Part shown: in pieces, positions 5,336 through 63,522 of the stretch | How positions within the stretch are numbered: position 1 is the stretch's first letter | How the letters are laid out: the number at the start of each line of letters is the position of its first letter | Virus record (IMG/VR): IMGVR_UViG_3300021399_000097 | Length of the DNA: 64,000 nt | Reading direction: 5' to 3' (one strand) | From: a virus | Lineage: Duplodnaviria; Heunggongvirae; Uroviricota; Caudoviricetes | Made by a program: the position numbers and the translations under genes | Notes under the pieces: generated by a model | The model's database searches: none | Told to the model about the DNA's origin: nothing | The model's input: the letters and a program-made list of their open reading frames with translations, nothing else

Positions 5336-5647
5336 TTATACTACATAATGTCTTTCAATAATTTCTTCTTGCCAATGAATATCAGGATATCTTTTTTGAC
5401 AGTATTCTATAAGCTCATCAGCAGTCATATAATTAAAAAGTTCCCCTTTAAAAAAATCTTCATGGAGAGTAAGATAATCCCAAAACTCTTTAAGATTTTC
5501 TTGTGGTTCTATTATTAAAAAATGTTCAATATCCGAAACAATATCATAAACTTCTCTTCCTTTACGAAGAAAAGATTTAATATCTAACAAATCTAAAGCT
5601 TGCTCAGTTAATCTCATAGATTCATTATATGTATAGTATTTTTTCAT
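5336..5647 (-). CDS. hypothetical protein
   Basis: Intact ORF ending in TAA, downstream of promoter P2. Confidence 0.4.
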   Translation of the reverse strand: MKKYYTYNESMRLTEQALDLLDIKSFLRKGREVYDIVSDIEHFLIIEPQENLKEFWDYLTLHEDFFKGELFNYMTADELIEYCQKRYPDIHWQEEIIERHYVV

Positions 5648-5653
5648 ATATAT

Positions 5654-5682
5654 ATTATATCATAATTTTTTAATTTTTTCAA
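5654..5682 (-). promoter_or_regulatory. sigma70-type promoter P2 (TTGAAA, 17 nt, TGaTATAAT)
   Basis: Minus-strand motif family. Confidence 0.55.
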
Positions 5683-5693
5683 TTATAAAATTA

Positions 5694-7463
5694 TTAAAAC
5701 TCCCATTGACTTCTTGTTTGTATTTCAAAATCTTCTAACATAATTTGTGGCGTTACGTTTCCCATATAATGATTAAGAGCGCATTTACCAATTGCTGTGA
5801 TTATAATAATTCCATTTTGTGGGTCAAGTAACTGTTTTTCTTCTTCAGTAATATTAAACTTAATTATATTTAATTGTCTGTCTGGGAAACTAATTTTTAA
5901 AGTATTTTTATTAGAACCAATAAAATGTATTGTATCAGCTGTAAGTTTAATATTTGTAATTGCAATCAAAGGCTCGTCTAAATGTTGGCCCCATAAATCA
6001 GCATTAGACCCAATAGAAAATACATCATTATCATCTAATTGGTTAAAGTTTAATTCTAGATCTACTAAATAACAAGGTGAAAAATCAAAGTCTTTTAATT
6101 TTTCATTCGTTACTTCAACAAACTTATCATAATTTTCAACAGGAATTGCGCATCCAAAAGCAGATGCATGGCCTTGTGCTAATGATGTTAGACCAGTATC
6201 TAAACAAAATTGTCTAAAATCTTCTAATTGAGAATTACCATAATTGCGGCCAGACCCCGCATAGACAGGAGTTCCTTCCTCATCAACTGTTTCGCGCAAA
6301 ATTAACGTAGGTTTAGCATACTTATTAGCAATTTGGTTAGCAATTAAGCCAGCAAGATTTTGGTCAACTGCATCAGCGGCAACGCATACTACTAAAAGTT
6401 TATTTTCTAATAAATTATTTTCATAAATCAATTCTTCAACATAAGCTAAACTACTATCTTGCGCTTTTTTCTACCTACTCTTTACATTGATACAAGTACG
6501 GCCGGCCTGTTCGTGTCTTGTTTCAACTTGACCTTTGCATCCTCTTTTGGTTGAAGGAATAAGTTCATCACTACGCCAATCTAACATTGCTTCAAACATT
6601 AGATACTTTTCTTCTGGTGTTCCACTTCTAACCATAGCATTAATATAAGGAGTAATGTAAAAAGCAATTCCAATAGGAGTAATATTATTTTCAAATTGGT
6701 ATCTTTGTCTATTCATCATTTCTACAAAGAAATGATTGGTAATATTTGCCAGACCTAATTTAATAAGTTCGTGTGTCTCAAAATCTCTTTGGTCCATCAT
6801 ATCACTAATTAAAGATAATGCTACTAAATCTTCAAAATCTTTTGCATAATTGGTTTTCATTAAAATATCAAATTGTGAGCAAAACTTATAAACAATAGCA
6901 CCGCCGCATAAAGATTTTGTAGGATATTGTGTAGATAATTGATTGTTAATTACACAAGCGTATTTACTATATCCTTCATCTGCTTCATGGTGGTCAAGAA
7001 CTAAACAGTCAACTTGATGGTTATATAAAAGCTCATGTGCTTCATAATCATTACTTGCGGCATCTGGTACTATAATTAATTTATATCCTTTAGCTAACCA
7101 GTTACTTTGTTCAAGAACATCTTTTAAGCCATGCTACTTACCAGTATGGATAAAATAATCAACATTATTCTGTACCCACCCTGGGAAGAACTTATTGAAA
7201 TAATTCATAAATATAGCAGCAGAACAAAAACCATCGGCATCAGCATCAACTACAATTAGAGCCTTATCATTAGCATTGATATGTTTAGCTAACATTTGCA
7301 AGCCTTCTACCATATTGTCTAAAAGCAATGGATTTAAGATATCATTCTCATCAGTTGATAAAAAATGAATAATATCTTCAGTAGTTTTAAATCCTCTATT
7401 TAATAAAATCTATTGTAATAAAGTAATACCATTTTGTCGTGGTGCAATTAATCTATATTCCAT
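5694..7463 (-). CDS. recJ: RecJ-like DHH-family ssDNA exonuclease (3 in-frame TAG)
   Basis: Track ORFs 5694..6431, 6471..6860 and 7134..7328 plus the upstream segment share one frame, joined by TAG at about 6471, 7134 and 7410. Motifs DADADGF, LDHHE, GGAIVYKF and AQGHASAFGC, and an N-terminal region resembling the RecJ N-terminus. Confidence 0.75.
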
Positions 7464-7804
7464 TTATCTAATACTCCTTTATCATTATATCTATAAACTG
7501 GCACAGAAGGAGTACTAGCTAATTTGATTTTGTCACAAAGAGTATTTTCAATAAAAAATAGGTTCGCGCAATTATCAGCTGTATCTTGATTAAAAGGAAC
7601 TGCTAATATTGTAATTCCACAATGCTTATTCTAATTATTCATATATCCATAAATCTTGCCATCGTGATAAGCAGTTTCATATCTACTTCTATGAAAATCT
7701 CGTCTAATAAGTGCTGCTGTAATATCAAAAAATAATGCTTCTGTATAATTTCTATTACTGTCTTTATCATATAAAATTATTATAAGTAAATCTTTGTTTT
7801 CCAT
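7448..7804 (-). CDS. hypothetical protein (118 aa, 1 TAG)
   Basis: ATG overlaps the primase 3' end. Its TAA overlaps the RecJ ATG. Confidence 0.4.
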
Positions 7805-8877
7805 AATTGTAAAAATATATCCTTTCCATCATCTACTGGAGCATCTTTATATCCTGTTAACATCTGTTTGTCAAATATAATACTAATATCTAAATAATTT
7901 TTATACTTATTATGAAGTTTGGTTAAATTACTAGTTAGATGCTTGAACTCATCATCTCCAATAGCTTGGAATTGTCTATCAAAAGCAATAGTCATTTCTT
8001 TAACCCCAGCATCTAATAGTAATTGTACTTGATAAATAGAGATATTTGACCCACAACAAGCGACTGAAATATCATTATCTAAACCAAAAAAAGATTGATA
8101 TTTTAAACAACTTTTTTCACTTTCAAAAATAATTGCCCGATGTGTAATATTGATATTATTTTTACTATTATTTAAATTATATAAGTTCATTCCAAGAGGA
8201 TGATTATATAATTGCCGATTAACAAACAATGGTCTATATTTACCATATAAATCAGCATCTTGTTTACACAAAGACCTTCCACGTAAACCAATGAAGTTCC
8301 CATCTTTATCAAAATGTGGGATGGTGATTTGCGCTCCACCGGGATAAAAACCTATTCGCGCATTATCCATTACAGATTGAGAAATGCCTTCACGCAACCA
8401 TGGATTAAGTTTAACATTATAATTCATACGAGATAAAATAATATCATCATAAGGCTTTAAAGTTACTCTATAATCTTTATTTTCTATCTCTTGGACCCGG
8501 TCATATGTATTAAAAAATTGCCAATCTAATAATGTCTCTTGTTCGTCAAACTCTTCTTCTCCAGCAAGATTAAACTTAATAGCAATATAACGAACAGCAT
8601 CATTTAAGTCATATTCTCTGCCCCATTGGTTATTAGCAACTTTAATCAATAATTCAAATATATCAAAACTGCCGCAGTTAGTAAAACAATGAAACAACCC
8701 AGTATTTTCATAATAGTATAATTTACGACTACCTTCACCTGGTTGATTATGGCAAATAGTTGAAGAAAGGATACCAAAGCTGGTATACTCTGGATCCCCT
8801 CCCCATTCTTGCAATAAGTCAAAAATGTTCTCTATTTTTAATTTTTCTCTAACTTCATACTTTTTATAAGTAACCAT
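7780..8877 (-). CDS. DNA primase (zinc-binding + TOPRIM)
   Basis: CHNQ...HCFTNCG zinc motif and IIFESEKSC TOPRIM motif. TAATG overlap with the upstream gene. Confidence 0.65.
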   Translation of the reverse strand: MVTYKKYEVREKLKIENIFDLLQEWGGDPEYTSFGILSSTICHNQPGEGSRKLYYYENTGLFHCFTNCGSFDIFELLIKVANNQWGREYDLNDAVRYIAIKFNLAGEEEFDEQETLLDWQFFNTYDRVQEIENKDYRVTLKPYDDIILSRMNYNVKLNPWLREGISQSVMDNARIGFYPGGAQITIPHFDKDGNFIGLRGRSLCKQDADLYGKYRPLFVNRQLYNHPLGMNLYNLNNSKNNINITHRAIIFESEKSCLKYQSFFGLDNDISVACCGSNISIYQVQLLLDAGVKEMTIAFDRQFQAIGDDEFKHLTSNLTKLHNKYKNYLDISIIFDKQMLTGYKDAPVDDGKDIFLQLWKTKIYL

Positions 8878-9095
8878 TATACTAAGACAACCCTAGTGCA
8901 ATACCCCTTAAGTCTAAACTCTGTATTTACAATATCACACAAGAACTTTTGAGGATTGCTATGCTGGTCATCGCCTTTTCTTGTGGCTAAAAGTTGTTTT
9001 GCATAAGCCTTTGGCATTTCATACTCAATTTCTCCATAAAAAGGTGTAGACCATACAGTAGTGGGTACACTCTCAATAATCTTATCTTTTTTCAT
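8877..9095 (-). CDS. hypothetical protein
   Basis: AAGGAG SD 8 nt upstream, TAA stop. Confidence 0.45.
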   Translation of the reverse strand: MKKDKIIESVPTTVWSTPFYGEIEYEMPKAYAKQLLATRKGDDQHSNPQKFLCDIVNTEFRLKGYCTRVVLV

Positions 9096-9109
9096 TATTT
9101 ATTCTCCTT

Positions 9110-10639
9110 TTAAAAAGCACTTGGCTCTGTTGTTAATATTTTTAAATTATCAATCTGTACAATTTCATAACTATATGTTGTCGCAAACATTGGTTGGATA
9201 CGACAAGTTCCTAAGTCTGCTTTACACCAAAGATAAATCCCTTTATATCTACCACGACGATTTTTATAAATTGACATTTTTAAATCTGGTTTATCAAATG
9301 CATTATTCGCTAAAATACGTTGTAGATTTTCTATATCATCATCTTTTGCCGGAAGTAAAATTGCACCCATATCTATTTTATCTGCAATTGCTTTTGCACC
9401 ACGCAATAGATTTTGGTCAGGCGTTTCACTTATTTGATAATCACCATTTAACTGAGTTGCTGACATAATAAAAATGCCATACTTATTACATAAATCTTTA
9501 AGTCTAATTGATAACATAAAAAGAATTGTATCTTCACGAAGTTTTACTCCACCAGACCTACGAGTAATTTCTTCTAATATCTTTAAACTAGTATGAATAT
9601 AATCAAAGAAACAATACTTAATATCATGGTCTCTTATATTCTTTTTGATTTTATTTTCAACATCTTGTAATGAGAAATCTGGTAATACTTCAATATAAAT
9701 TGGACTATTCTTTAAAATTCTACCTGCCTCATAAACTCGTTCTTTTTCATCGCCTTCATATTTGCCATTTAAAATATGTTCTTCATTAACATTAGATAAA
9801 AATGCTAACATCATTGTTTGTATTTCACCTAATTCTTGCTCTGTTGTAATATACAACACTGGTTCAGCAACTCCATTGTTATTCCAACCAAATACATTAT
9901 CATATATTTTATTGCATCCAATATTACAACAATCTGCAATCATAGAACGAGACTTACCAACGCCAGTAGGTGCCGAGCGCAAATAAAACTTTTTTAATCG
10001 CGCACCTCTTGTAACTGTGTTAATCAATGGCCCATAAAGTGGTACTCCTACCTCTGGACTTTTTTCTAACTCTTGAAGTAAATCAATTATTCCTTCACCA
10101 GCTTGTGTTGCTTCACCCCAAGCATCATCTACATATGTTGATTTTATTTGGTCAACTTTATCTTGAACTTTTTGAGCAATATTTTCAAGACTTGTGTTAT
10201 CTAATATCTCTTCTTGCTGTTGGCGTTTCTTGATATCTACAATATTGTCTGGGTCATAAATATCACTAACGTCAATCCCATATTGATCAAAAACCCTTAA
10301 TAAAGTCATTTTCTTCATTCGGTTATAATAATAATCAAATGAAGCAGTTTCCGCATTTTCACTAGCTTTTAATAGCCATTCTTCACCTTTTTGTTTGGTA
10401 AATATAGCTTCACTTTTTGGACGAGAAGATAAATAATCCAAAATACTATTTAAAGTAATTTTTTCTGCGCCCAACTCATGCAGTTTAAAAATACTTCCAA
10501 ACACAATTTTATGAAACTGGTCTGGAAAATCATCATCAGTAATTGAATATCTATCTGTATAATCCAATAGTTGAGGAGATTTAAAAACACACCCAATTAC
10601 TTGAACAATACTAGGTGTATCTACATATTTTGAACTCAT
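9110..10639 (-). CDS. dnaB: replicative DNA helicase (DnaB family)
   Basis: Walker A PTGVGKSRSM, IFIMSATQLN, and a C-terminal GAILLP...YKNRRGR region. GGAGGAGG SD. Confidence 0.7.
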   Translation of the reverse strand: MSSKYVDTPSIVQVIGCVFKSPQLLDYTDRYSITDDDFPDQFHKIVFGSIFKLHELGAEKITLNSILDYLSSRPKSEAIFTKQKGEEWLLKASENAETASFDYYYNRMKKMTLLRVFDQYGIDVSDIYDPDNIVDIKKRQQQEEILDNTSLENIAQKVQDKVDQIKSTYVDDAWGEATQAGEGIIDLLQELEKSPEVGVPLYGPLINTVTRGARLKKFYLRSAPTGVGKSRSMIADCCNIGCNKIYDNVFGWNNNGVAEPVLYITTEQELGEIQTMMLAFLSNVNEEHILNGKYEGDEKERVYEAGRILKNSPIYIEVLPDFSLQDVENKIKKNIRDHDIKYCFFDYIHTSLKILEEITRRSGGVKLREDTILFMLSIRLKDLCNKYGIFIMSATQLNGDYQISETPDQNLLRGAKAIADKIDMGAILLPAKDDDIENLQRILANNAFDKPDLKMSIYKNRRGRYKGIYLWCKADLGTCRIQPMFATTYSYEIVQIDNLKILTTEPSAF

Positions 10640-13804: not shown

Positions 13805-14083
13805 TTATTCTACACTAAGTGTATAGCCAATGACTTTGTTCGCGCCATAGACTATATCAAGAAAGTTTTCAATTTCATCTATAACATACTATGTTTTACT
13901 ACCATGATAATTGTTTAAGAACTCACCATAAGAAATCATATGTATATCATTAATTCCATATTGCTTGGCTTTATATTCCATTGCTCTTGGATTACTACAT
14001 ACTAATACGGCATTATTTTCTTTTGCTAATAAAAGCAATTTACTAGTTTTACCAGTTCCTCTTCCATCAATAATACGATGCAT
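13805..14083 (-). CDS. small P-loop protein (1 TAG)
   Basis: GRGTGKTSKL. Reading through the TAG at 13889 carries on to a TAA that sits exactly at the -35 box of P4. Confidence 0.4.
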
Positions 14084-15234
14084 TATTTAATACTGTACCC
14101 CCATTCTTTGGCGTTATAAAAGTTCTACCAATAATCTTCTTTTTCGTTTAAAAGATTTCCAGAACATTCTTCAATAATTTCAAACATAAAGTTTTCAACA
14201 CCAATAGCTAACATAGCAGGATAAAGTTTATTCTATGTAGGAGGGTCTGCGCCGATGCCTCGTTTAATATGTTGTTTCCAACGTTCTGCAATATCAACTG
14301 CCTATCCTACATAACACATTCCATTATCTATATTAGTTATTTTATAAATACCTGTTTTACGTCCTTGTCCTACTACTCTACCAATTAAATCAGTACATGG
14401 TTTTTCATAATATACTTTCCAAATAACCTTATTTAATGGTTCTTTTTTTCTTAAATAAGGTTCAATAGAACGAATACGTTTTATTTCTTCTTTATCAATT
14501 TCATCTAATTGTAATCTATAAAAATCTTTTTGTTGTTTATCGGCGGCCGCACGTTTATTAGACTCAATAGCAGCATTAGCCATTTGTTGTAAATTATTTA
14601 ATTGATTTTCTTTTTCTAAAATCTAATTATCTAATTTCTCTGTAGTAATTAACCATTCATCTCTTTGGGCATCTGCTAAATCTTGATAATGAACTAATAA
14701 TTCACTTTCTAGTTGTTCATATTTATTGATTAAATCTTTGCTTTGCTGTTCAACTTCTGTTGTCATATTATTAACAACTTGCTCTTCAACTAATTTAGCA
14801 GCAGTTTTAGCCTAATTATCTAAATCATTAATTAAATGTTTCTTTTCTTCAATCTACTATTCTAAACCAGAAACTTCAGATTTTAAATTAGATTCATGCT
14901 ATGCCCAATAAATAATTTTTTGATTTTTTTCTTTGTCCCAAGCAATACGTTCATTAACAATTTCAGCCTATGCAGTTCGCGCAGCTTTTTCTAATTTTTG
15001 ATTCTACTCTTCAAAATCAGCTATATATTTATCTGTTAATTGAGAATACTGCTTATCTAATTCTGTATTTTTTTGAATATATTCTTTTTCTAAATCTTTT
15101 ATGCGTAATTGTATTTGCTATTCTGCTATTTCTAACTCTTGGTTTTTCTATTTAACTTTTATAGTTCTTATCAATTGTCCAATTAGAAAACCAAGTAAAA
15201 GACAGACAATCCCTATAATAAGTGCGTTATTCAT
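14083..15234 (-). CDS. membrane-anchored coiled-coil GIY-YIG nuclease (17 in-frame TAG)
   Basis: N-terminal TM segment LIIGIVCLLLGFLIGQL, then a coiled coil of about 230 aa, then a C-terminal GIY-YIG domain GIYKITN...CYVG[TAG]A...ERW..H...EIIEEC. ORF 14302..14583 is its central fragment. Confidence 0.7.
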
Positions 15235-15243
15235 AGCTGTAAT

Positions 15244-15277
15244 TAAAAAAATAAAGGGGTAAAGTATTTTTACCCCT
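15244..15277 (-). terminator. rho-independent terminator (AGGGGTAAA..TTTACCCCT hairpin + T-run)
   Basis: 9-bp GC-rich stem followed by TTTATTTTTTT on the minus strand, upstream of the GIY-YIG gene. Confidence 0.6.
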
Positions 15278-15296: not shown

Positions 15297-15563
15297 TTAT
15301 TCTTCTTCTGCGTCTGGGTCAAATGCGATGCCAGCAGGAGTGAGCTGAAGGAACTTCACAGCCTTATGGGTACCATCATCAAGTTCAACCTCAGCGGGAA
15401 CACGGATACCAAGACCCTTGCGCTGAATAGCACTTGTGAAAATACCATCTACCTAGCGCTTCTCAAGACCGAGAGCATCAGCAACATCACCAGAGGTAAC
15501 ATTGGCTCCACCAATACCTTTAAGATAATTCAATACGTTCTTACTATTTTCTTTCATAGCCAT
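15297..15563 (-). CDS. small winged-helix-like protein in a GC-rich patch (1 TAG)
   Basis: About 45% GC against roughly 30% around it. Has its own promoter P5 and GAAA-rich SD. Confidence 0.4.
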
Positions 15564-15611: not shown

Positions 15612-15640
15612 ATTATACTAAAAAATATTTAAATTGTCAA
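15612..15640 (-). promoter_or_regulatory. sigma70-type promoter P5 (TTGACA, 17 nt, TATAAT)
   Basis: Minus-strand motif family. Confidence 0.55.
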
Positions 15641-24773: not shown

Positions 24774-25085
24774 TTAACCAATAGCGATAGAATCATCTTT
24801 TGGGTCATAATCTAACATTTGCTTATCATACATAGCGCATTCATAGACAATACCATCTTTAGAGTTTTCTGCCTATGACTTTTTATAATAAGCATGTTGA
24901 CTAACTCCATAAGCGGTCCATGGTAATGCTGTCATAGCAGTTAACCAAGGTAATTCTGCAAAAAATCCTTTAAATACACAGATATAAGCTAATACCAATA
25001 AGGCAATCGTATGTATCCAAATTAAGATAGATTCTTGAATTAATAGAGTTTTTGAAAACTCTATTTTCTTTTTTTCAGTTTCCAT
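24774..25085 (-). CDS. putative holin (2 TM; 1 TAG)
   Basis: Two hydrophobic helices and a charged C-terminus. TAATG overlap with the endolysin stop. Followed by a hairpin terminator. Confidence 0.5.
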
Positions 25086-26476
25086 TATATTTTTTCAACA
25101 AACTCTAAGTTAATCCAACCAGCGCCAGATTTTAATTTACCCCAGCCGTCTTGGACTTCAACAATAGTGTAAGTATCATTCTATCTTAATCTGCCTACAA
25201 CTGGTGCATTCCCATTAGGAGCATTGCGCACATTTAATAAAATAGGCAATACTTTTACTTTATAATTCATAGCACTTACATCAGCAGTTTGTTCAGCATA
25301 GCGACCATTCCCTAAAACAACAACAACGTGTTGATTACGATTATTTAAAATATCACCACGTTTTAAGTAATCCTTCTGTCTAGTATATTTTGCATCTACA
25401 TAATTGATAAACTTACCAGTCTTTAAGCAAGCTTCTTCCATATTAAATGTAGTTCTCATATTCCCACCAGCAAAGAAGATGTTTTCAGGCAATCCAGCGC
25501 AAATACAACAAATACTAACTAATGAGCTACAATCACATTCGCATGGTGTAGTGATTTTAGATAAATCCATTCCAACTTTTTTAGCTTCTGTGTATAAAGT
25601 ATTTCTTTGATTTTGGTCATATCCAATGTAATTATTTTCGCAGGCTGCTTCCATTGCTTGAGCGATTTTTTCTGCTAACTGATTATCTACAGGACGCAAT
25701 ACATTCGTCCAACTCTAATCATACCAAGTATTTAAAATATATACTTCACTACCAGATTGGTCTCCCGCAAGACCATTACGATACCCGCAGTTTTCATCTT
25801 TAGCAGCCATACCAAGAGCCACATCATTGTAAGATCTTGCCGGCCGCACAATAGGTTTAAACTCACCAGATTTCTTCTCTTGGAGTATCCCCTCTGGATA
25901 AACAATCTTACCAGAATTATTATAAACATAATATCCATCTGGTAATTTATTATATGCTTCAATAGCTTTATCTAAATCATTATATGCGCCAATTTGTGTT
26001 TTTGGTTCATACCAATTCTTGCGAATACGATAGATTTGAATAGATTTTTTAGAGACAACTTCATCTAATTTAGCGAGTGTTTTTTCTCCAACTAAACCAT
26101 CAACTGTTAAGCGATTTTCTTTCTAAAATTTAATAACAGCGTCTAAAGTATTTCCACCAAAATCTCCATCAGCCCCATCAATACCAACAGAGTAGCCAGC
26201 TTTAATTAACTTCTGTTGTAATTGTTGAACTGCATAACCAGTATCTCCACGACTTAAATAATTCTTTTCCTAAGCCATAGGCGCAATAGGAATAGACTGC
26301 TATATTTCTTCTTCTGTTGGTGCTGGGATATCAGGTTTTATATTTTCAACGATAAAATCTGGATTAAGTTCGGGTTCAAAATTTTGTTCTTGTTCTTGAA
26401 AATCAATTGGTGTATTAAAAACTACTTTTCCCTGTGATTGAGGGGCAGCCTTTAACGTATATTTGTTTTTTGCCAT
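25085..26476 (-). CDS. endolysin: PG_binding_1 + NlpC/P60-like peptidase + SH3b (5 TAG)
   Basis: PG-binding repeat LSRGDTGYAVQQLQQKL...AVIKF[TAG]KENRLTVDGLVG, CDCSSLV, and an HVVVVLG Cys/His region. C-terminal SH3b segment VLPILLNVRNAPNGNAPVVGRL...GW. Track ORFs 25181..25699 and 25732..25962 are fragments. Confidence 0.7.
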
Positions 26477-26492: not shown

Positions 26493-26534
26493 ATAAAAAA
26501 AGGACTGAATAAATCAGTCCTTTTACATTTTTTC
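26493..26534. terminator. bidirectional terminator (AGGACTGA..TCAGTCCT) between PhoH2 and the endolysin
   Basis: 8-bp stem flanked by an A-run and a T-run. Confidence 0.55.
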
Positions 26535-27776
26535 TGCAATTTTTCCAATAGTTGAACGATGTATTTCTTTCAGTTCAATTTCTCCATAAATAGTAGAACC
26601 CCTAAATACTTTTGAAGCACGCCGCATACCATTATTAGCACCAGCGAAACTAATATCATCTACCTATGTTTTTTCATCACCATCAATAATACAAATACTA
26701 TCTTCTCCAATACGCTATAATCCTAATTTCATTAAAGAAATATCAAGATTCTATGCTTCTGAAAAATAAATACCTGCGCGCAAGCCCGTTGTATCATAAC
26801 CACGAATATCACTCATTGGTAATAAAATCAATTTTTCTTCATCAAGTAATCTTTCAACTTCTACACGACTACCTAGTTTACTAATTAAAACATTACCAAT
26901 CTATGAGTCTAGCAATTTTTCTTCTCTGCTTCCTGGTAAATAACCAAGTCTTGCCGCATTCTTTGCAGCAACAGTATTACAGAAAATAATTATTTTATCT
27001 ATTTTATGTCTTTCTAACTACTGGAATAAAAATCCAAATGCGAGCAATGTTTTACCAGAGCCTGCAGGACCTTTTATCATAGTTAATTGGTTATGAGTTA
27101 AACTATCTGCGACAAACTACTACTAAACATCTATTGGTTTAATAACGCCAAAATGTTTAGAATCAAAACTTTCAAAACTAATAGGACGATATTCTGTGCC
27201 AGTATAGCATAATCTATCTACTATTTCATTTTGCTAACTTCTAATTACTAAATACTAATTAGGCAATAAATCATAAGTATTCTATTGCCAATTCTAATAA
27301 AACTATTCCATTTCAGATTCATTAAGTGTTAAATCTAAATATCCCTAATAATGGTCTATTTCTTCTTCGCCAACACTTTCTATAGAATCTTCACCAAAAA
27401 ATAAATTAGCAATTTCAAACAAACTATTATCGTCAGTAACAAATATTGTTTCATCTGGATGAACAGTATTATCATAATTAATTGCAGTCGCCAAGATTTT
27501 TGTATCATTGGTTATAGTTAAATGTTTATCAATAATAGGTTGTAGCATATCTTCTGTAAAGATATGGACATCATATTCTCCTCTATGCTCTTTTAATGTA
27601 TGAAGCAATTTGCGGGCTGCATACTTTTGTTCAGCATCTTTATATGGAGAAGTTTTTATATCTTCTAATTCATTTAATGTAATTGATGAAATAGCAAAGG
27701 GTTCGTTATTATCAAATAAGGTACCTGCTTTTAATAATAAAGAACAAGTATCATAAAACTTATAGTCAATCACCAT
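26523..27776 (-). CDS. PhoH2-like protein (PIN domain + PhoH ATPase; 14 TAG)
   Basis: MVIDYKFYDTCSLLL PIN-like N-terminus, Walker A GPAGSGKTL, and LLPMSDIRG. ORF 27345..27869 is the N-terminal fragment. Confidence 0.7.
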
Positions 27777-28035
27777 AATCGTCGTCTTCCTCTTCTTCAT
27801 AGATTTCTTCTTCATCATCTGGTAAAGCAAAGCCAATAACTTTAGTTTGCGGTAATTCTTCTTCTTCACCGCTTAAATCAGTAACTTCTTTTTGGATTTT
27901 TGTTATATGCACTAGTTGTTTGCCTTTAATTATTTCAAACTATTGCAATATAATATTTACCAATCCTTCAGCTATTGGAACAGCGACTACGTAGATAAAT
28001 ATTCCTAATAATACATATATAAGAATAATAACCAC
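27766..28035 (-). CDS. small membrane protein with acidic tail (1 TAG)
   Basis: TM segment VVIILIYVLLGIFIYVVAV and C-terminal EEEEDDDYGD. GTG start. Confidence 0.3.
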
Positions 28036-29057: not shown

Positions 29058-29615
29058 TTATTTTATTTTGTTAAATGGCTGAACAGGATGCTCATCTCTA
29101 TAAACTTTAATTTCTGCCATAATTTGCTCAATAGAAATAGGAAAGCAGTTATGCGCATCCATCGCTACATTATAGATAGAATCATCCCCATAAATACTTT
29201 CAGTTGAATGAGTATGCCCTGATAGATTCCAAGTTGGATGCTTATCTTTATAGTTTCCCATTTTCATTGGATAATGAGAAAGCCAAAAAGAGCATTTATT
29301 ATATTTAAACCGATAACCAAATTGAATATCTTCAAAGATATGTGCATCTTCATATAGACTTAATCTTTCATTGGTATCATGATTTCCATAAGCAAGATAT
29401 TTAATACCTTTAAGGTCGCCAAGAAGCTTAATACCAGTTGTATTATCTTTAAGCATACAATCACCAAGAATATAGACAATATCATTAGGTTTTACAAAAA
29501 GATTAAATCGTCTAACAATTTCATTATTCATTTCATCAATGGATGAAAATCCTCTTGCTTTCCATACAAACTCTTTGTCATGACAAAAATGAAAATCAGA
29601 GCAAAGCCAAATCAT
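29058..29615 (-). CDS. calcineurin-like metallophosphoesterase (Pnkp phosphatase-like)
   Basis: DFHF, GDCM, GNHD, GHTH. Confidence 0.7.
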   Translation of the reverse strand: MIWLCSDFHFCHDKEFVWKARGFSSIDEMNNEIVRRFNLFVKPNDIVYILGDCMLKDNTTGIKLLGDLKGIKYLAYGNHDTNERLSLYEDAHIFEDIQFGYRFKYNKCSFWLSHYPMKMGNYKDKHPTWNLSGHTHSTESIYGDDSIYNVAMDAHNCFPISIEQIMAEIKVYRDEHPVQPFNKIK

Positions 29616-30106
29616 GAATTATCAACCTCCAATATTGCGGTATATTTAAAATTATCTTCATTAGGGTGCTGTAAAGCATCATACATATCACATAGGTTAT
29701 GATAAGGAACTCGCGCCCGTCCTTCTCTTTCACTATTTCTCTGTTGGATAGTGGCAAAAGAAGCCTTTACATAAACTGGAATTACATCTATTTTAGTAAA
29801 GTCAATTCCATAATTTTTTAAGTTATATAATAATTTATTACGACTTTTTTCATTTAAATGAGTTGCATCAGCAATTACATCTGTATGAATATTATCTAAT
29901 AGATTAATGCTAATTTTTTCACAGAACTCTTTAAAAACCTGTCGCTCTTTACTAAAATATTCATCTCCGCTGTTTAAAAGTGCAAATCTAATTTCATCAC
30001 GAGAGACATATTTCCATAAATTATTTCTTATAAGATGATTTTTTGCGAAGTAACTTTTACCCGCGCCAGGACATCCTACCATAATCCAAAGAGTCTTTAC
30101 ACTCAT
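29612..30106 (-). CDS. polynucleotide kinase (P-loop, Pnkp kinase-like)
   Basis: MVGCPGAGKSYFAKN Walker A. Lies directly upstream of the phosphoesterase. Confidence 0.6.
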   Translation of the reverse strand: MSVKTLWIMVGCPGAGKSYFAKNHLIRNNLWKYVSRDEIRFALLNSGDEYFSKERQVFKEFCEKISINLLDNIHTDVIADATHLNEKSRNKLLYNLKNYGIDFTKIDVIPVYVKASFATIQQRNSEREGRARVPYHNLCDMYDALQHPNEDNFKYTAILEVDNS

Positions 30107-30317
30107 CTTTATACAACCCCTTTTCAAAATTTTCTTTAAACTCTAAAACTTCTTCACTAGTTCTACATTCAATATGATTAACAGTTTGTTTACACCAAGG
30201 ACAATAAAGAACTTTACGATGATGTTTGCTATGTTTATGACTTATTTGTCTTTGAATAGGAATAGCTTCACGCCCACAATTCATACAATAAAAATTATGT
30301 AATTCATAGTTTTTCAT
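30057..30317 (-). CDS. zinc-ribbon protein
   Basis: CMNCG...CPWCK. Confidence 0.4.
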   Translation of the reverse strand: MKNYELHNFYCMNCGREAIPIQRQISHKHSKHHRKVLYCPWCKQTVNHIECRTSEEVLEFKENFEKGLYKDECKDSLDYGRMSWRG

Positions 30318-30318
30318 A

Positions 30319-31071
30319 TTAATACCTCTTCATCAATATAATATCTTCAAAAGTATCAAGGTTCAAAAGGATTGCCACATTTTCCCAAACCGTGCCAATA
30401 TCAATACAGACTTTGTGCCTCTGCGCATACCAATAAGATGTACCAGGAGTCCATTTAGGTATTGTTACTTGAAATTTATCTTTATGCCATCTTGCTATAT
30501 TTTTTTGTTCTTCAATCATAAGGTCAATAGGAGTATGTCCATGAACTATTATTTGATTATCCTCTCCAGACCATTCATCAGGAAATCTCCAATGTTCTCT
30601 ATCCCATATTGCATGATATTCATCTAAAGTATCAATGTCTACACCATCACATCCTGCATGACAAAGGAATACTTGTTGATTATTTTTATTGATATAATTG
30701 GCGCAAAAAGGCAAATCTTTTATTTGTTTTAAAATCTTTGCTTTTCCAAAATTATCTTCATCCAAAAGAAAAGCATCATAAGTAGGGTCGCCGCCATTAT
30801 AATGCCAGAGGGTGGTGTCCGCATTCCATAAACTATCTTCTTCTTCTGGATTAAATTTCCCAATAGCTTCAATCATTAAATCTTCATGATTGCCCTTAAT
30901 ATAGATAACCCTAGGGTCTGCAAGGAGTTCTTTGATAAGTTTCCATCCATCTGGTCCTCTATCTGCGGCGTCCCCTAAAAAGTATAATTTATCATCTGGT
31001 TTAAGAATCTTTTTTACTTTTTCCCAAACCCAATAACATCCATGCCAATCACTAGCACAGTAAACACTCAT
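30319..31071 (-). CDS. Ser/Thr protein phosphatase (lambda-PPase-like metallophosphoesterase)
   Basis: DWHG, GDAADRGPDG, GNHE, GHT. Confidence 0.75.
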   Translation of the reverse strand: MSVYCASDWHGCYWVWEKVKKILKPDDKLYFLGDAADRGPDGWKLIKELLADPRVIYIKGNHEDLMIEAIGKFNPEEEDSLWNADTTLWHYNGGDPTYDAFLLDEDNFGKAKILKQIKDLPFCANYINKNNQQVFLCHAGCDGVDIDTLDEYHAIWDREHWRFPDEWSGEDNQIIVHGHTPIDLMIEEQKNIARWHKDKFQVTIPKWTPGTSYWYAQRHKVCIDIGTVWENVAILLNLDTFEDIILMKRY

Positions 31072-31085
31072 ATTTTATCACTTCC

Positions 31086-31250
31086 TTAAATAATCTCGTA
31101 AGTAACTGTCATAAACCATCCTCCTGGGAAATCAACAGGAGTCATTGATACTCCAATAATTTTTCGCTTAGGATAGTTTTGAGAATAGGCACGTAATATT
31201 TCATTAGCGTGCCCTTGATTTTGTACTGGAATAACTTGTATTTGAATCAT
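31086..31250 (-). CDS. small hypothetical protein (54 aa)
   Basis: ATGA overlap with the upstream gene. Too short to appear in the track. Confidence 0.3.
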   Translation of the reverse strand: MIQIQVIPVQNQGHANEILRAYSQNYPKRKIIGVSMTPVDFPGGWFMTVTYEII

Positions 31251-31462
31251 TTTGCATCTGTTTTATACATACGAGCCATGTATTTTTCTGAAGCAGCCTC
31301 TCCTCGCAAATCAACAGGCTCGCTAGAACAAAGCCCCCAAACAACTTTTCGTTTCTCTACATATTCTTTGTACTCTTGGATAGTATCAAAGGTTTTCATT
31401 CTAGTCCAACCATCTTCTGTCATACGATAACCATAATACATTTTTGATTTCATCCTTTTCAT
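31247..31462 (-). CDS. hypothetical protein
   Basis: First gene after promoter P11. Confidence 0.4.
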   Translation of the reverse strand: MKRMKSKMYYGYRMTEDGWTRMKTFDTIQEYKEYVEKRKVVWGLCSSEPVDLRGEAASEKYMARMYKTDAK

Positions 31463-31474
31463 TTTTCTATATAT

Positions 31475-31503
31475 ATTATATCATAATTTTATAAAAAAAT
31501 CAA
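31475..31503 (-). promoter_or_regulatory. sigma70-type promoter P11 (TTGATT, 17 nt, TGaTATAAT)
   Basis: Minus-strand motif family. Confidence 0.55.
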
Positions 31504-31518
31504 TAAACCGTTCTTTAT

Positions 31519-31552
31519 AAAAAAAAGACACAATAATTGTGTCTTTTTTTTT
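31519..31552. terminator. bidirectional terminator (AGACACAAT..ATTGTGTCT)
   Basis: Perfect 9-bp palindrome flanked by A8 and T10. Confidence 0.65.
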
Positions 31553-31553
31553 A

Positions 31554-32444
31554 TTATTCTACATTTTCTCCAAGAGTTAACATAATTCCTGCGCTATCAT
31601 TAAGCATAGTTGATGGCAGTTCTCCATTCCACTGTTTAATCCAATAATATTTAATAAGGTCTGGAGTTAGTGCTTCTGCAATACGCTGGTTCATTTGCGC
31701 TTCACGTTCACCTGCATAAAGGCTCGCTTCTGCTTGAATCTGTACGACTTCAAGGTCTGCATTAGCCGCAATAATCGCCTGTTTTGCTTCAGCTTCGGCA
31801 ACAATAATCGCACGCTCTGCTTTTGCTTGTTCTTCCATAGTTTGCTGAGCTTGAATTGTTTCAGCGCGCAATTTATCCTGCTGTGCTACCTGCTTTGCTT
31901 CAACCGCATTTGTAAAAGCATCAGTAAAGTCAAGGTCTTCAATAGAAGTGCCAACAATTACAATATTATATTTCTCTAAAAGTTGAACTAATATTTCTTC
32001 AATATCGCTAGCAAGTTTATCACGACTATTAATAAGACCTTCTGCTGTATAATGCGCAGTTGCTGTTTTAACTGCTTCACTGACATTAGGCGCAATTACT
32101 GTATCAAAATAATTTTTACCAATAGTACGATAAATAGTCATTGCATCATTTTTACTAATTTGATAGTTAATAGTATATGTTACTGAAGTCTCTTGAATAT
32201 CTTTTGAAAAGGCATTCATTTGGATAGTATGTTTTTGAATACGATTATCCATTTTAATAACAGAAGTAAAAGGTCCCTTTATATGGAAACCACTATCTAG
32301 AGTATAATCAGCAACTTTACCAAAAGTCACAGGGACTCCTGTAAATCCAGCAGGAACAGAAGTCGTACAACTCAATCCGACAATTAAAAGAGCTATAATT
32401 ACAATAGTACAAACAATACTTGTAGTAATAATTTTATTTTTCAT
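31554..32444 (-). CDS. SPFH/Band-7 (stomatin/prohibitin-like) membrane protein
   Basis: N-terminal TM segment, an SPFH-like core, and an Ala/Gln/Glu-rich coiled-coil tail. Confidence 0.7.
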   Translation of the reverse strand: MKNKIITTSIVCTIVIIALLIVGLSCTTSVPAGFTGVPVTFGKVADYTLDSGFHIKGPFTSVIKMDNRIQKHTIQMNAFSKDIQETSVTYTINYQISKNDAMTIYRTIGKNYFDTVIAPNVSEAVKTATAHYTAEGLINSRDKLASDIEEILVQLLEKYNIVIVGTSIEDLDFTDAFTNAVEAKQVAQQDKLRAETIQAQQTMEEQAKAERAIIVAEAEAKQAIIAANADLEVVQIQAEASLYAGEREAQMNQRIAEALTPDLIKYYWIKQWNGELPSTMLNDSAGIMLTLGENVE

Positions 32445-32457
32445 TTATATTATTCCT

Positions 32458-33693
32458 TTACATATGATATTTAAGTAGAAAAGCATTACTTACTGCTTTA
32501 AAAGAACGTTGTCCATCTTTAGAACGGAAAACAAAACCTTCACGAGGCTTGCCATCAATAATAGAGTTTCCTTCTGCAAAAGCAAGAAGTTTATCTACAT
32601 CAAGTCCTTCAAACTTAAAGCTAGGAAGAACAACAGGTACACAGGGAATATGATAATGTTTCTCAAGGAGTTCTTTCATTTCAAGAGTTCCCCAACGACC
32701 TCTATCAGAAGTAATAAGATTAAATGCTCTGAAATCATGGCCTTCAAGAGAGTAATCACGTTTCTGCACTCCTGCACCAAAAGTTTCTCCTTGTATAGTT
32801 ACCCACTCAACATCTGGCCGCCCAAGCAGAAAAGCAAGCAACATATTATACATATCATATTTTTCAGCCATTTCCCAATAAATGTTAGTATCATAATAGC
32901 AGCGTTTATCTACACTGTCAAAACATACATTACGGGAGCATACATAGAACTCATATTTATTATGTTTTCCACGTTTCATCGTAAAGGTGGTAGAGCTGCC
33001 ATCTATCTTTTCAGTGACGACCCATTCTCCCTTATCTTCAAGAATCCAAGGCATGTTTTGAATGCGCTCTTCATCAGTTTTAGTAACCCATTCTGGCCAG
33101 CTATTCTTCTTATCTTTTTTCTTTCCAAAAAACAAGAACATAAGTTTTTTACCCCAAGTGCGCTTCATAAGCCAACGCACAAAAGGTTTGCGAAAAATTG
33201 CAGGATGTCGCTGTGCCATCTTTTTATATTTGTCTACAGAATTAGCTTTACGATTATTATCTTCTTCATCCGCATAAGTTACACCGAGAATTTTAGTAAG
33301 GAAACGGGATTCTGTATCTACATAATGACAAGCATTATTATCATCCATAATACAAGCTGGTTCATTATAACCAGTTTCTCCAGCTTGATACGCTTTCCAT
33401 CCAAAATCTTCTGCGTGCATAATAAGTCCCTGGCTGAGTACCTTACACATCTTCTGAGTTTTTATTTTATAATTACGTTTTTCAAGGAAAGCGAATGCTG
33501 GGTTGGTTGAAGGAACTTTACTATCAATTTCAAAATAGATTGCTGCATCTCCTACATGAAACTGTCCTTTAGGAACAATACACCACCAACCACCGGTTCG
33601 CGCATGCTCTACTCTATCATAGCCAGGAATCTCTCGTATTTCATCTATAATTACAACATATGCCAGTTCTCGTTCTTGATTTTTATTAAGCAT
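32458..33693 (-). CDS. ATP-dependent RNA ligase (Rnl family with N-terminal extra domain)
   Basis: Nucleotidyltransferase motif I VTEKIDGSS and motif V EGFVFRSKDGQRSFKAVS. Confidence 0.7.
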   Translation of the reverse strand: MLNKNQERELAYVVIIDEIREIPGYDRVEHARTGGWWCIVPKGQFHVGDAAIYFEIDSKVPSTNPAFAFLEKRNYKIKTQKMCKVLSQGLIMHAEDFGWKAYQAGETGYNEPACIMDDNNACHYVDTESRFLTKILGVTYADEEDNNRKANSVDKYKKMAQRHPAIFRKPFVRWLMKRTWGKKLMFLFFGKKKDKKNSWPEWVTKTDEERIQNMPWILEDKGEWVVTEKIDGSSTTFTMKRGKHNKYEFYVCSRNVCFDSVDKRCYYDTNIYWEMAEKYDMYNMLLAFLLGRPDVEWVTIQGETFGAGVQKRDYSLEGHDFRAFNLITSDRGRWGTLEMKELLEKHYHIPCVPVVLPSFKFEGLDVDKLLAFAEGNSIIDGKPREGFVFRSKDGQRSFKAVSNAFLLKYHM

Positions 33694-33699
33694 TTTATA

Positions 33700-34074
33700 T
33701 CACTCCTTTATTTCATAACCTTTATAATATCCCGCATTCATTTCATAATTAGCCATATCTTCATATGTGCTGAAACCTTGCTCTATAAGAAAAGCCTGCA
33801 ATATTTTATCTATATCATCCGCATACGTCTCATATGCTTCTGCTCGTTTTGCTTGCTCAATTAGTTCGCGCAATTCCCAATCTGGTAATCTATAATAAGT
33901 ATGCATTTCATAGTTTTCTTCTGGCTTAAACCAATGTATTACTCCACCACTAACTGTGCTATTCCAATACCATTTTCCCTTGCCATCTTCAAACATCATC
34001 CAATAATTATAATGGATGATAGTTCCATCTTTAAATATTGTTGTATATATACCTTCTTCAGTTGGATTATTCAT
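33700..34074 (-). CDS. hypothetical protein
   Basis: Intact ORF. Confidence 0.4.
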   Translation of the reverse strand: MNNPTEEGIYTTIFKDGTIIHYNYWMMFEDGKGKWYWNSTVSGGVIHWFKPEENYEMHTYYRLPDWELRELIEQAKRAEAYETYADDIDKILQAFLIEQGFSTYEDMANYEMNAGYYKGYEIKE

Positions 34075-34637
34075 TCATCATTATCCTTTTTAATATAAGT
34101 AATAGAATATCCCCCAAATTTAATTGGTTTATTTGGTGTATTCATTGCTTTTTCAAATGCTCGTTGAATATTAGCATTTCCAGAAATTGTCTTATCATTT
34201 TTAAGAATTTCTTTAGCATTACCAATAGGCATAAGAGTAGTATTTAACATAACCATAGTATCTACGTTCATAGTAGAGTTGATAGTTGTATTAATTGGCG
34301 CATTATTTTTTTTATCTATTTCATCGCGCTTTCTATTTTCTTCAAGTGTCACCCATTCAAGATTTTTTAAACGATTATCCCAAGTATTATGATTTTTATG
34401 GTCAACTGTAAGATTAGCATAATTAGGGACTGGTTTCCATGTTTGAAGAACTAAACGATGAGCAAGTTTTCCTTTGCAATAAAGATATCCATCTTTTTTA
34501 CATACAGTTAAAAGATGCCCTTGAGTATCTTTAAATCTTCCAAGATTGGAAACATAAATATCTAATGCCATACAATATTTCCATCGTTCAATATCAATAT
34601 GAAGCTTTGGCAATATAATCTTTTTCATATACATCAA
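34071..34637 (-). CDS. HNH endonuclease
   Basis: AHRLV...DHKNHNTWDNRLKNLEWVTLEEN. Confidence 0.6.
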   Translation of the reverse strand: MMYMKKIILPKLHIDIERWKYCMALDIYVSNLGRFKDTQGHLLTVCKKDGYLYCKGKLAHRLVLQTWKPVPNYANLTVDHKNHNTWDNRLKNLEWVTLEENRKRDEIDKKNNAPINTTINSTMNVDTMVMLNTTLMPIGNAKEILKNDKTISGNANIQRAFEKAMNTPNKPIKFGGYSITYIKKDNDE

Positions 34638-51553: not shown

Positions 51554-52077
51554 TACCTACATTTTACAACGCCCCAATCATAATTAAATAACATAAATAG
51601 CATTGCTCCATTTTCATTCTTTATCCAACATTCTACTTGCTGATTATCATCATCATACTCAATATGTTGCACAACTCCAACATCTTGTAAACATTCAATG
51701 ATTACATCTTCTACATTTTCATTTGCGCTTTCTTCTATTTTAAATACTGTATAATAATGGATATCATTACAAAGTAGCATGAAATAACTATCATTAGAGT
51801 AATTATCAATAAAATCTCGTAAGATTTTCTTTGCAGGACTTAACTGTTGTTCTGTAATTAAAGATGGAAATTGCGCGACTATCTATTTCTATAATTCATA
51901 ATTGGTAAGTCCAGTATTTACAACTGTATCGTTTGTATCAACTACTAACCAATCATGCGCATCTTCATTATAACGATAAATGCACTAATCTTTTTTACTA
52001 TAAAGATAATCTCCATCTTTTGGAATATCTGTATAATCTTTTAATTCATCAAAGATTCCAAGGTTAATAATAATCAA
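51553..52077 (-). CDS. hypothetical protein (about 174 aa, 3 TAG; start uncertain)
   Basis: ORF 51553..51780 extended upstream through 3 TAG to a TTG next to AAAGGAG. Confidence 0.35.
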
Positions 52078-52094
52078 CTCCTTTCTTTATAAGA

Positions 52095-52123
52095 ATTATA
52101 TCATAATTTTTTTAAAAAATCAA
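52095..52123 (-). promoter_or_regulatory. sigma70-type promoter P17 (TTGATT, 17 nt, TGaTATAAT) for the dUTPase/RuvC operon
   Basis: Minus-strand motif family. Confidence 0.55.
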
Positions 52124-52195
52124 GGCATTTTTTAATTGGACGAATTAGATTAAATAAATTAAATCTTTATTTACATTATTTGAGATAGTAAAAAT

Positions 52196-52225
52196 ATAAA
52201 GAAAGGGGAGCTGAAGATTGGCACT
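52196..52225 (+). repeat. duplicated tail-fiber leader and start region, copy 1 (copy 2 at 57164-57195)
   Basis: GGGAG(n)CTGAAGATTGGC(A/T)C shared upstream of and across the TTG starts of two fiber genes. Confidence 0.5.
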
Positions 52226-55200: not shown

Positions 55201-55250
55201 TTTTATAGTATAATACTAGTACAGAAGCTTTAGATTTTGTATTTAGTTAA
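52218..55250 (+). CDS. tail fiber protein (1,010 aa; 3 TAG) with Ala-X-Y triplet-repeat shaft
   Basis: TTG start after GGGGAG. ORFs 52218..54623 and 54780..55106 share a frame. Repeated module ...LELNVSGTGSKPIKRYG...YDGTNW. Confidence 0.6.
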
Positions 55251-55266
55251 TTAAGGGGGTATATCT

Positions 55267-57171: not shown

Positions 57172-57195
57172 TGGGAGGGCTGAAGATTGGCTCAA
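57164..57195 (+). repeat. duplicated tail-fiber leader and start region, copy 2
   Basis: Matches 52196-52225. Confidence 0.5.
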
Positions 57196-63504: not shown

Positions 63505-63522
63505 TATAAAGGGGGCAAGATT

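Follow-up and report, generated by a model that had tools for sequence, protein, structure and literature searches.

The present study describes a gene for a candidate membrane-tethered nuclease at positions 14083-15234 (minus strand) of a 64,000-nucleotide stretch of DNA, hereafter the window, from the Caudoviricetes phage record IMGVR_UViG_3300021399_000097 of IMG/VR. Its 383-residue product, encoded with twelve in-frame TAG codons read as glutamine, combines a predicted N-terminal membrane anchor, a long helical stalk, a conserved basic module, and a C-terminal GIY-YIG domain. The gene belongs to the core of a large gut-phage lineage, holds a fixed place in a replication module, and its expression looks damped across the clade. 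We tentatively favor the reading, quite possible though far from assured, that the protein would be a location-restricted, sequence-tolerant nuclease cleaving DNA on the cytoplasmic side of the membrane, most plausibly the genomes of superinfecting phages.

Gene structure and TAG decoding

The region contains exactly one open reading frame (ORF), which runs on the minus strand from an ATG at 15234 to a TAA at 14085-14083 and encodes 383 amino acids if TAG is a sense codon; the plus strand of the region has no open frame. The frame is broken by TAG only, with no TGA and with the terminal stop as its sole TAA. Where the initial annotation gave 17 TAG codons, we counted 12 in frame, at codons 29, 39, 77, 89, 112, 126, 127, 141, 204, 311, 334, and 370. 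The exact 383-residue sequence is on record on 22 metagenome contigs, the largest of 195,902 bp.

14083..15234, minus strand: complete gene, 383 codons plus TAA stop, in a single minus-strand frame
15148-15150, 15118-15120, 15004-15006, 14968-14970, 14899-14901, 14857-14859, minus strand: first six of the 12 TAG codons (Gln)
14854-14856, 14812-14814, 14623-14625, 14302-14304, 14233-14235, 14125-14127, minus strand: last six of the 12 TAG codons (Gln)

The codons used at two glutamine positions of the catalytic domain bear on the meaning of TAG. Among 73 distinct orthologous genes, the invariant glutamine of the motif Y[VI]GQ[AS], which in the window gene is TAG codon 311 (14302-14304), is encoded by CAA (40), TAG (18), or CAG (15), and that of W[KR]QHIKRG by CAA (31), TAG (18), or CAG (11). 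Furthermore, in the related loci L027, L030, L032, and L033 the nuclease gene is free of in-frame TAG and specifies the same architecture at full length. Since TAG swaps with CAA and CAG at invariant glutamines and the TAG-free orthologues are full length, we conclude that TAG is read as glutamine and that the protein is translated in full; KVKQKNQELEIAEQQIQLR is an example stretch of the window protein spanning TAG codons read in this way.

Many other ORFs of the window are long only if TAG is sense. All 61 retained ORFs end in TAA or TGA, a count that is silent on TAG termination because the caller took only these two codons as stops. The G+C content is 28-42% over the window and about 30% near the nuclease gene. 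A tRNA search gave no tRNA gene in the window, so the suppressor tRNA must sit elsewhere in the genome. Relatives carry tRNA-Sup(CTA) (PMC10607447), and one of them, phage Phass-1, has such genes adjoining its own copy of the nuclease gene.

Protein anatomy

The predicted parts of the protein, from the N to the C terminus, are as follows.

15169..15225, minus strand: membrane anchor, residues 4-22, predicted reverse signal-anchor (N-out/C-in) from hydropathy and flanking charges
14797..15165, minus strand: stalk helix 1, residues 24-146, variable in sequence and the sole indel-bearing region (within the modelled helix 2-146; identity 38%, gaps 14%)
14776..14796, minus strand: helix break or hinge, residues 147-153, VNNMTTE (modelled as non-helical; confidence score below 50 at 146-152; no gaps in the family)
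14533..14775, minus strand: stalk helix 2, residues 154-234, of fixed length across the family (within the modelled helix 154-242; no gaps; pairwise identity 43%)
14359..14532, minus strand: pre-GIY module, residues 235-292, basic and the most conserved part (pairwise identity 83%; nine conserved Lys/Arg)
14086..14358, minus strand: predicted GIY-YIG catalytic domain of the I-TevI type, residues 293-383 (profile matches and aligned catalytic residues)

The N-terminal transmembrane or signal-anchor helix proposed in the initial annotation is recovered as residues 4-22, the sole strongly hydrophobic segment: their 19-residue Kyte-Doolittle mean is 2.73, and no other segment exceeds 1.1. In the window protein the helix follows MNN, without lysine or arginine, and is followed by RTIKVKQK. 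The same asymmetry runs through the family: in 55 of 55 members the helix is preceded by no lysine or arginine, and the 15 residues after it contain 3.75 of them on average. By the positive-inside rule, the anchor is predicted to be a reverse signal-anchor that leaves the short N terminus outside and the remaining protein in the cytoplasm; it is not a cleavable signal peptide.

AlphaFold2, given a 33-sequence alignment, modelled helices at residues 2-146 and 154-242 with a predicted local distance difference test score of about 80-93. Of the coiled-coil stalk of about 230 residues described initially, the long helical region stands, and its length is corrected to about 210 residues. Across the family the stalk measures 167-211 residues, every indel falling in helix 1, while the break and helix 2 keep a constant length. 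We regard it as a putative coiled coil on account of the modelled helices and of weak matches to SMC-, JetC-, LmuB-, and RmuC-type coiled-coil profiles; a simple heptad/Fourier periodicity measure of the stalk gave no informative coiled-coil signal.

Mean pairwise identity across the family is 83% in the pre-GIY module, 73% in the nuclease domain, and 29-43% in the anchor and stalk. The pre-GIY module, over which AlphaFold2 confidence is low, appears to be a new conserved module of 58 residues, with no Pfam match in 23 members and no PHROGs match. Its basic character and top conservation are as would be expected of a DNA- or partner-binding module.

The initial assignment of a C-terminal GIY-YIG domain is confirmed by the modelled GIY-YIG alpha/beta fold and by profile matches. 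PF01541 matches residues 294-375 with 38.7 bits against a curated threshold of 22.6, and the C-terminal halves match it in 23 of 23 members; TIGR01453 (group I intron endonuclease) also matches above its cut-off, though only over model positions 1-87 of 215. I-TevI in the PDB is matched at profile level (E = 4e-8), and the catalytic residues line up: Y297, Y308, R318, H322, and E366 are invariant and correspond to I-TevI Y6, Y17, R27, H31, and E75. The catalytic domain is probably a competent I-TevI-type endonuclease. Against BFVD, the full-length model retrieved two viral proteins of similar overall layout and otherwise only catalytic domains of homing endonucleases. The arrangement is, as the initial annotation had argued, not that of a homing endonuclease: the nuclease lies at the extreme C terminus, the DNA-binding half is without a match, and the protein terminates where the I-TevI catalytic domain does, with no linker, zinc finger, or helix-turn-helix.

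Read with the standard code, the frame is interrupted 12 times, and one could suppose that no single protein exists. Translation stopping at the first TAG, which the initial annotation had raised as fatal to its interpretation, would leave a 28-residue membrane peptide; the gene could also be decayed, or it could encode a spanin-like lysis protein of the membrane, as a weak PHROG match of residues 6-93 to an Rz-like spanin (phrog_739, E = 9e-5) might suggest. A stop at the first TAG is contradicted by the alternation of glutamine codons and by the TAG-free full-length orthologues. Further points against this reading are the absence of any TGA and of any TAA before the last, the strong conservation of the C-terminal half, an architecture common to 848 family clusters, and the tRNA-Sup(CTA) genes of relatives. 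The spanin match covers the anchor and coil only, and the C terminus is predicted to lie inside the cell; the gene sits in a replication module with no partner gene present, and the lysin gene is found at 25085-26476. To our knowledge, spanins are not expected in hosts of the Gram-positive type. Taken on topology, context, and codon alternation, these possibilities are effectively excluded and together very improbable.

Expression signals and TAG usage

The signals that bear on expression lie between the nuclease gene and the gene directly upstream, p88, and before p88 itself.

15255..15277, minus strand: intrinsic terminator hairpin of the upstream gene, then a T-run (9 bp stem, 4 GC pairs)
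15612..15640, minus strand: consensus sigma-70-type promoter before p88, TTGACA-17-TATAAT, matching 12/12

The strong terminator reported initially is thus located at 15277-15255 on the minus strand. Its T-run ends about 14 nt before the nuclease ATG, with no Shine-Dalgarno (SD) motif between. All 48 distinct p88-nuclease intergenic regions fold far better than shuffled sequences (median z -5.4), and their terminator stems have 42 different arms, a sign of compensatory change. In orthologous intergenic regions a median of 12 nt separates the hairpin from the ATG, and an SD-like motif precedes the nuclease ATG in only 2 of 49, whereas most window genes have GGAGG-type SD sites. The best promoter match upstream of p88 scores 11-12 of 12 in 38 of 48 relatives. 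On these features, the nuclease gene appears to be insulated from a strong early-type transcription unit, poorly initiated, and untranslatable without suppression. Its expression looks triply damped across the clade, by the terminator, by the missing SD, and by TAG codons.

The share of TAG among glutamine codons, computed across 67 recoded loci, sets the nuclease gene apart from most of the replication genes around it, for which the range is 1-9%:

Tethered nuclease: 0.33 (median 7 TAG; 94% of orthologues have some)
GyrB: 0.010
GyrA: 0.015
LigA: 0.022
p109: 0.024
AAA_24: 0.045
YorF: 0.053
DnaB: 0.076

Within the window, the claim that this is the most TAG-dense gene does not hold, as three other ORFs are denser:

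47575-48909, minus strand: radical-SAM-like ORF, 15 TAG in 444 residues, TAG 54% of Gln codons, more recoded than the nuclease
26523-27818, minus strand: PhoH/PIN-domain ORF, 14 TAG in 431 residues, TAG 70% of Gln codons, more recoded than the nuclease
50177-50464: ORF, 5 TAG in 95 residues
14083-15234, minus strand: tethered-nuclease gene, 12 TAG in 383 residues

With 3.1 TAG per 100 residues and TAG as 34% of its glutamine codons, the nuclease gene is mid-range among the recoded genes of the window. Its high density arises partly because the stalk is rich in glutamine (9.1% Gln). What is exceptional is an island of TAG use in a nearly TAG-free replication module, across the 67 related loci. 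Elsewhere in the window, the holin-like and lysin genes (24774-26476) have 1 and 5 TAG codons.

A published proposal places the translation of recoded genes after a code switch (bioRxiv 10.1101/2021.08.26.457843). Under that model the nuclease would be produced late and in small amounts, which would suit a dangerous enzyme.

Family and genomic context

A profile search of 1.84 billion cluster representatives gave 848 family clusters at E<=1e-30. The best 150 of these measure 145-413 residues (280-400 in most cases), and the nuclease forms their C-terminal end; 308-residue database versions are truncated gene calls, the anchor being encoded in frame upstream. At least 535 loci were found in IMG/VR. 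In GTDB genomes, the family occurs almost wholly on contigs of metagenome-assembled genomes; those bearing the pre-GIY module measure 100-185 kb for the most part, and their assignment to unrelated taxa marks them as mis-binned phage contigs. The family is confined to uncultivated phage contigs. No cultured phage with the family was found by tblastn among 50,697 deposited phage records, in which queries with the window protein and a TAG-free relative matched the pre-GIY module in Phass-1 only and elsewhere the catalytic domain alone. Megablast of 6 kb around the gene against the same records gave no match. No family cluster looked up in the protein database bore a name, and a literature search for phage GIY-YIG proteins with a transmembrane helix and coiled coil returned nothing specific.

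The nearest named genome is that of Phass-1, filed under 'Caudoviricetes code 15 clade'.

L001 locus 5485-6468 (OQ749652.1, about 63005-63988): Phass-1 orthologue, 327 residues, 8 in-frame TAG, same anchor-stalk-preGIY-GIY layout

GenBank splits this orthologue into two hypothetical proteins, WIC39637 (46 residues) and WIC39636 (144 residues), and leaves the stalk unannotated, which flags a systematic annotation error. The Phass-1 copy adjoins NrdD/NrdG/ThyX and two tRNA-Sup(CTA) genes. A second subfamily (L022, L024, L033, and L035; about 7450-8510 in each) has the same architecture and about 45% identity in the C-terminal half. Its genes start at or overlap the stop of a ThyX-like gene, near a metallophosphoesterase and outside the replication module described next.

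In about 90 loci the gene order is GyrB-GyrA-LigA-p64-p88-[tethered nuclease]-(p92)-p109-YorF-AAA_24-YorH-DnaB, with a RecJ-like gene further on; judged by its genes, this neighborhood is an SPbeta-type replication module. To avoid circularity, the lineage was re-sampled through the neighboring AAA_24 gene, and loci with enough upstream sequence were taken as informative. All of these informative loci (50 of 50) have the tethered-nuclease gene between p88 and YorF. As AAA_24 identity drops from 81% to 42%, the C-terminal half of the nuclease falls in parallel from 85% to about 36-46%. Therefore, from its fixed position and co-divergence, the nuclease gene is inherited vertically as part of the core and is not a homing element or a variable accessory gene.

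These observations bear on whether the gene could be a mobile GIY-YIG homing endonuclease with an unusual N-terminal extension. Its TIGR01453 score speaks for this, and homing-endonuclease families are the best matches in PHROG and PADLOC. However, the TIGR01453 match lacks the DNA-binding half, the domain is C-terminal, and a constant position with divergence in step with the neighbors is the opposite of what sporadic homing genes show. True free-standing homing-type genes in the related locus L022 also look different. Layout and distribution effectively exclude mobility, and the chance we would allow it is close to negligible.

The L022 genes just mentioned, at 8581-9495 and 9479-10525 (304 and 348 residues), stand directly downstream of the tethered nuclease in that locus. 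They have an N-terminal GIY-YIG domain and a C-terminal DNA-binding part, and may be source or sink of the catalytic domain.

The immediate neighbors of the nuclease gene in the window are small genes.

15297..15563, minus strand: p88, a small acidic winged-helix-like protein directly upstream of the nuclease, in every informative locus; no PHROG family
13805..14083, minus strand: p92, a small P-loop protein (GRGTGKT ... VIDEIE) of 92 residues; phrog_1828

p88 has 88 residues, a DPDAEEE tail, and no known family; it may act early as a highly abundant DNA-binding protein, or else serve the nuclease as partner or inhibitor. p64 gave no Pfam or PHROGs match. p92 follows the nuclease gene in 60 of 142 loci with a GIY match. 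The TAATG overlap noted initially exists, the p92 (13805-14083) ATG overlapping the nuclease stop codon, and this couples p92 translationally to the nuclease.

Further features of the lineage and window were recorded. Related locus L009 has a Mom-like gene between GyrB and GyrA (1761-2921) and a ThiF-like gene directly downstream of the nuclease gene (9074-9736), which hint at DNA modification in some lineage members. The window contains an apparent RNA-repair set (29058-34634 and, on the minus strand, 42264-43016), comprising an RNA ligase (32458-33693), an AAA_33 kinase-like gene, two metallophosphoesterases, and a Thg1-like 3'-5' nucleotidyltransferase (42264-43016); it may serve tRNA repair against host anticodon nucleases. 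GC skew flips its sign where genes turn to the plus strand (about 42000-48000 and 52000-64000), and very large plus-strand ORFs at 52596-63504 (884, 634, and 1864 residues; Laminin_G_3) look like tail-fibre or structural genes. Strong SD sites and SPbeta-type replication genes point to a host of the Gram-positive type.

Discussion

We propose that the tethered nuclease would be a single-pass inner-membrane protein whose three-residue N terminus faces outward, with the stalk, the basic 58-residue module, and the GIY-YIG domain in the cytoplasm. Since the sequence-reading DNA-binding part of a homing endonuclease is absent, the enzyme is probably sequence-tolerant, and its specificity may be set by location. 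The tether would hold the nuclease off the replicating phage genome, so that only DNA presented at the membrane is cut. With three brakes on its production, namely the upstream intrinsic terminator, the lack of an SD, and 12 TAG codons needing TAG-to-Gln suppression, the protein would be present at a low level and only after the code switch, i.e., after the phage's own DNA has entered. The most likely target would be the genome of a superinfecting phage during injection, by analogy with SNIPE (PD-lambda-1).

SNIPE, an E. coli anti-phage protein, starts with an N-out transmembrane helix, which is followed by an elongated part in the cytoplasm, the DNA-binding DUF4041, and a GIY-YIG nuclease at the C terminus, in a topology established by experiment (Saxton et al., Nature 2026, PMC13190303). 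It cuts phage DNA during injection, and its tether blocks self-cleavage, the form without the transmembrane helix being toxic (PMC13190303). The idea of a tethered nuclease acting on incoming DNA thus has an experimental precedent.

Several observations weigh against this proposal. The residue of the present domain at the position of I-TevI N90 is S381, and it is Ser, Val, Thr, or Asn across the family. No suppressor tRNA was found by tRNA search in the window or 33 related loci, so the timing argument is indirect. Superinfection exclusion is usually early and often accessory, whereas the nuclease gene appears late or low in expression, is strictly core (50 of 50 loci), and co-diverges with replication genes; core status and apparently delayed expression fit other roles too. 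The pre-GIY module is 83% identical within the family, while the target-binding DUF4041 of SNIPE is less conserved than its nuclease domain, and SNIPE's N-terminal stretch very poorly conserved (PMC13190303). DUF4041 (PF13250) gave no Pfam match at E<=1, whether in the whole protein or in 23 C-terminal halves, and the tethered nuclease has neither the T5orf172 (PF10544) nor the MUG113 (PF13455) signature; all listed SNIPE homologues carry all three. The N terminus does resemble that of SNIPE: hhalign aligned the N-terminal 120-140 residues collinearly (Prob 91.5%, E = 8.6e-7, 16% identity), and the PADLOC PD-Lambda-1 model matched 10 of 33 members, only over residues ~4-121 (model 7-124 of 496; best E 3.9e-5). 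However, because RmuC- and SMC-type profiles match the same stretch, this similarity may be mere transmembrane and coiled-coil composition. Homology of the C-terminal half to SNIPE was rejected, hhalign against a 27-sequence SNIPE alignment giving Prob 0.4%; the two nuclease domains align only over a 10-residue GIY motif, not significantly.

The strict core status agrees as well with a housekeeping role, in which a nuclease stationed at sites of replication or packaging on the membrane would nick or resolve intermediates of the phage's own replication and recombination, for example in starting recombination-dependent concatemer synthesis or in debranching DNA before packaging late in infection. 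A fixed place in a replication/recombination module, co-divergence with the neighbors, and the extreme conservation of the pre-GIY module, as for a conserved partner or substrate, are all in keeping with this role, and late or low expression would suit a late switch. RmuC offers a model for it, in which a transmembrane helix at the N terminus is followed by a coiled coil and a nuclease domain of the PD-(D/E)XK type (PMC1189080), and RmuC-type profiles weakly match the N terminus of 16 of 33 members (best E 1.4e-7). Yet the genes of the second subfamily (beside a ThyX-like gene) and of Phass-1 (beside NrdD/NrdG/ThyX) do not adjoin recombination genes, and the mechanism of RmuC is itself only predicted. 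We also know of no phage resolvase or replication nuclease that is membrane-anchored. Such a role is possible, if somewhat unlikely.

The same ThyX-like and NrdD/NrdG/ThyX neighbors, the latter with two suppressor tRNAs in Phass-1, could instead speak for degradation of host DNA for nucleotide salvage once the code has switched and perhaps once the enzyme has left the membrane. T4 endonuclease II (DenA), a small soluble early GIY-YIG protein, likewise attacks the host chromosome, and denA adjoins nrdB. Tight repression would also fit a toxic enzyme. However, a tether is counter-productive against the nucleoid, the anchor is universal in the family, and no protective DNA-modification system was seen in the window. 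Tethered SNIPE spares host DNA even if this is pulled to the membrane; host DNA is cut by the untethered form alone (PMC13190303). The option of host DNA as a target, left standing in the initial annotation, is weakened by this precedent, and we consider it improbable.

To return to the proposed cutting of incoming DNA, a bolder extension would be that a lineage of large gut and rumen phages has a core SNIPE-like guard, with a promiscuous I-TevI-type nuclease, self/non-self discrimination by location, and timing through the code switch, the terminator, and the missing SD. We hold this full combination to be unlikely. If it is true, the gate would shut only once the phage's own genome of roughly 190 kb is inside, and stop-codon recoding would act as a timer for a self-dangerous weapon against competitors. 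Furthermore, the SNIPE principle would have at least two origins, differing in GIY-YIG subfamily and in DNA-binding module. Location-based self/non-self discrimination, so far demonstrated for one E. coli prophage gene, would extend to a very large group of uncultivated, virulent-type phages of gut Firmicutes-like hosts. An independently assembled set of domains would argue that a tether, reach, and a non-specific nuclease are a general solution. The island of alternative-code usage in a standard-code replication module (67 loci) also offers a concrete case of what recoding may serve, namely the gating of a toxic protein.

Comparison with known systems

I-TevI of the T4 td intron (catalytic domain 1LN0/1MK0) is soluble and mobile, with the catalytic domain at its N terminus, followed by a linker and a sequence-specific DNA-binding domain. 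In contrast, the present domain lies at the extreme C terminus of a predicted membrane protein with no recognisable DNA-recognition domain, is vertically inherited, and does not keep Asn90. T4 endonuclease II differs in having no anchor, stalk, or pre-GIY module. The phi29 protein p16.7 (130 residues) begins with a transmembrane helix, continues as a coiled coil, and ends in a DNA-interacting domain; it binds DNA and is encoded with replication genes. Its plan is similar by description only, and p16.7 has no nuclease domain.

With RmuC (PF02646) the tethered nuclease shares the order of transmembrane helix, coiled coil, and nuclease. However, PF02646 gave no match in the protein, the nuclease here is GIY-YIG rather than PD-(D/E)XK, and RmuC is a bacterial chromosomal gene.

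The SNIPE gene was recovered through a published primer as a 500-residue 'DUF4041 domain-containing protein' in a lambdoid prophage.

L162, E. coli 118UI, NZ_CP032515.1, 4776-6278: SNIPE gene, between ren/P/O and the nin region (ybcN/ninE/rusA/Q)

SNIPE is thus itself a phage-borne gene adjoining replication genes; a 60-nt primer from it matches 131 of 5,426 complete E. coli genomes. The nuclease described here differs from it in belonging to the I-TevI type (PF01541/TIGR01453) and in its length of 383 residues against 500. Whereas SNIPE is a variable defence gene of Gammaproteobacteria, the present gene is core, with apparently damped or delayed expression, in large, apparently virulent, TAG-recoded phages of Gram-positive-type hosts. 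The two share a single N-terminal transmembrane helix with a short outward end (here predicted) and the rest in the cytoplasm, an elongated helical region, a conserved positively charged module before a C-terminal nuclease of the GIY-YIG clan, and a place in a phage genome beside replication genes. Although by its domains not a member of the SNIPE family, the tethered nuclease is SNIPE-like in its predicted design and topology.

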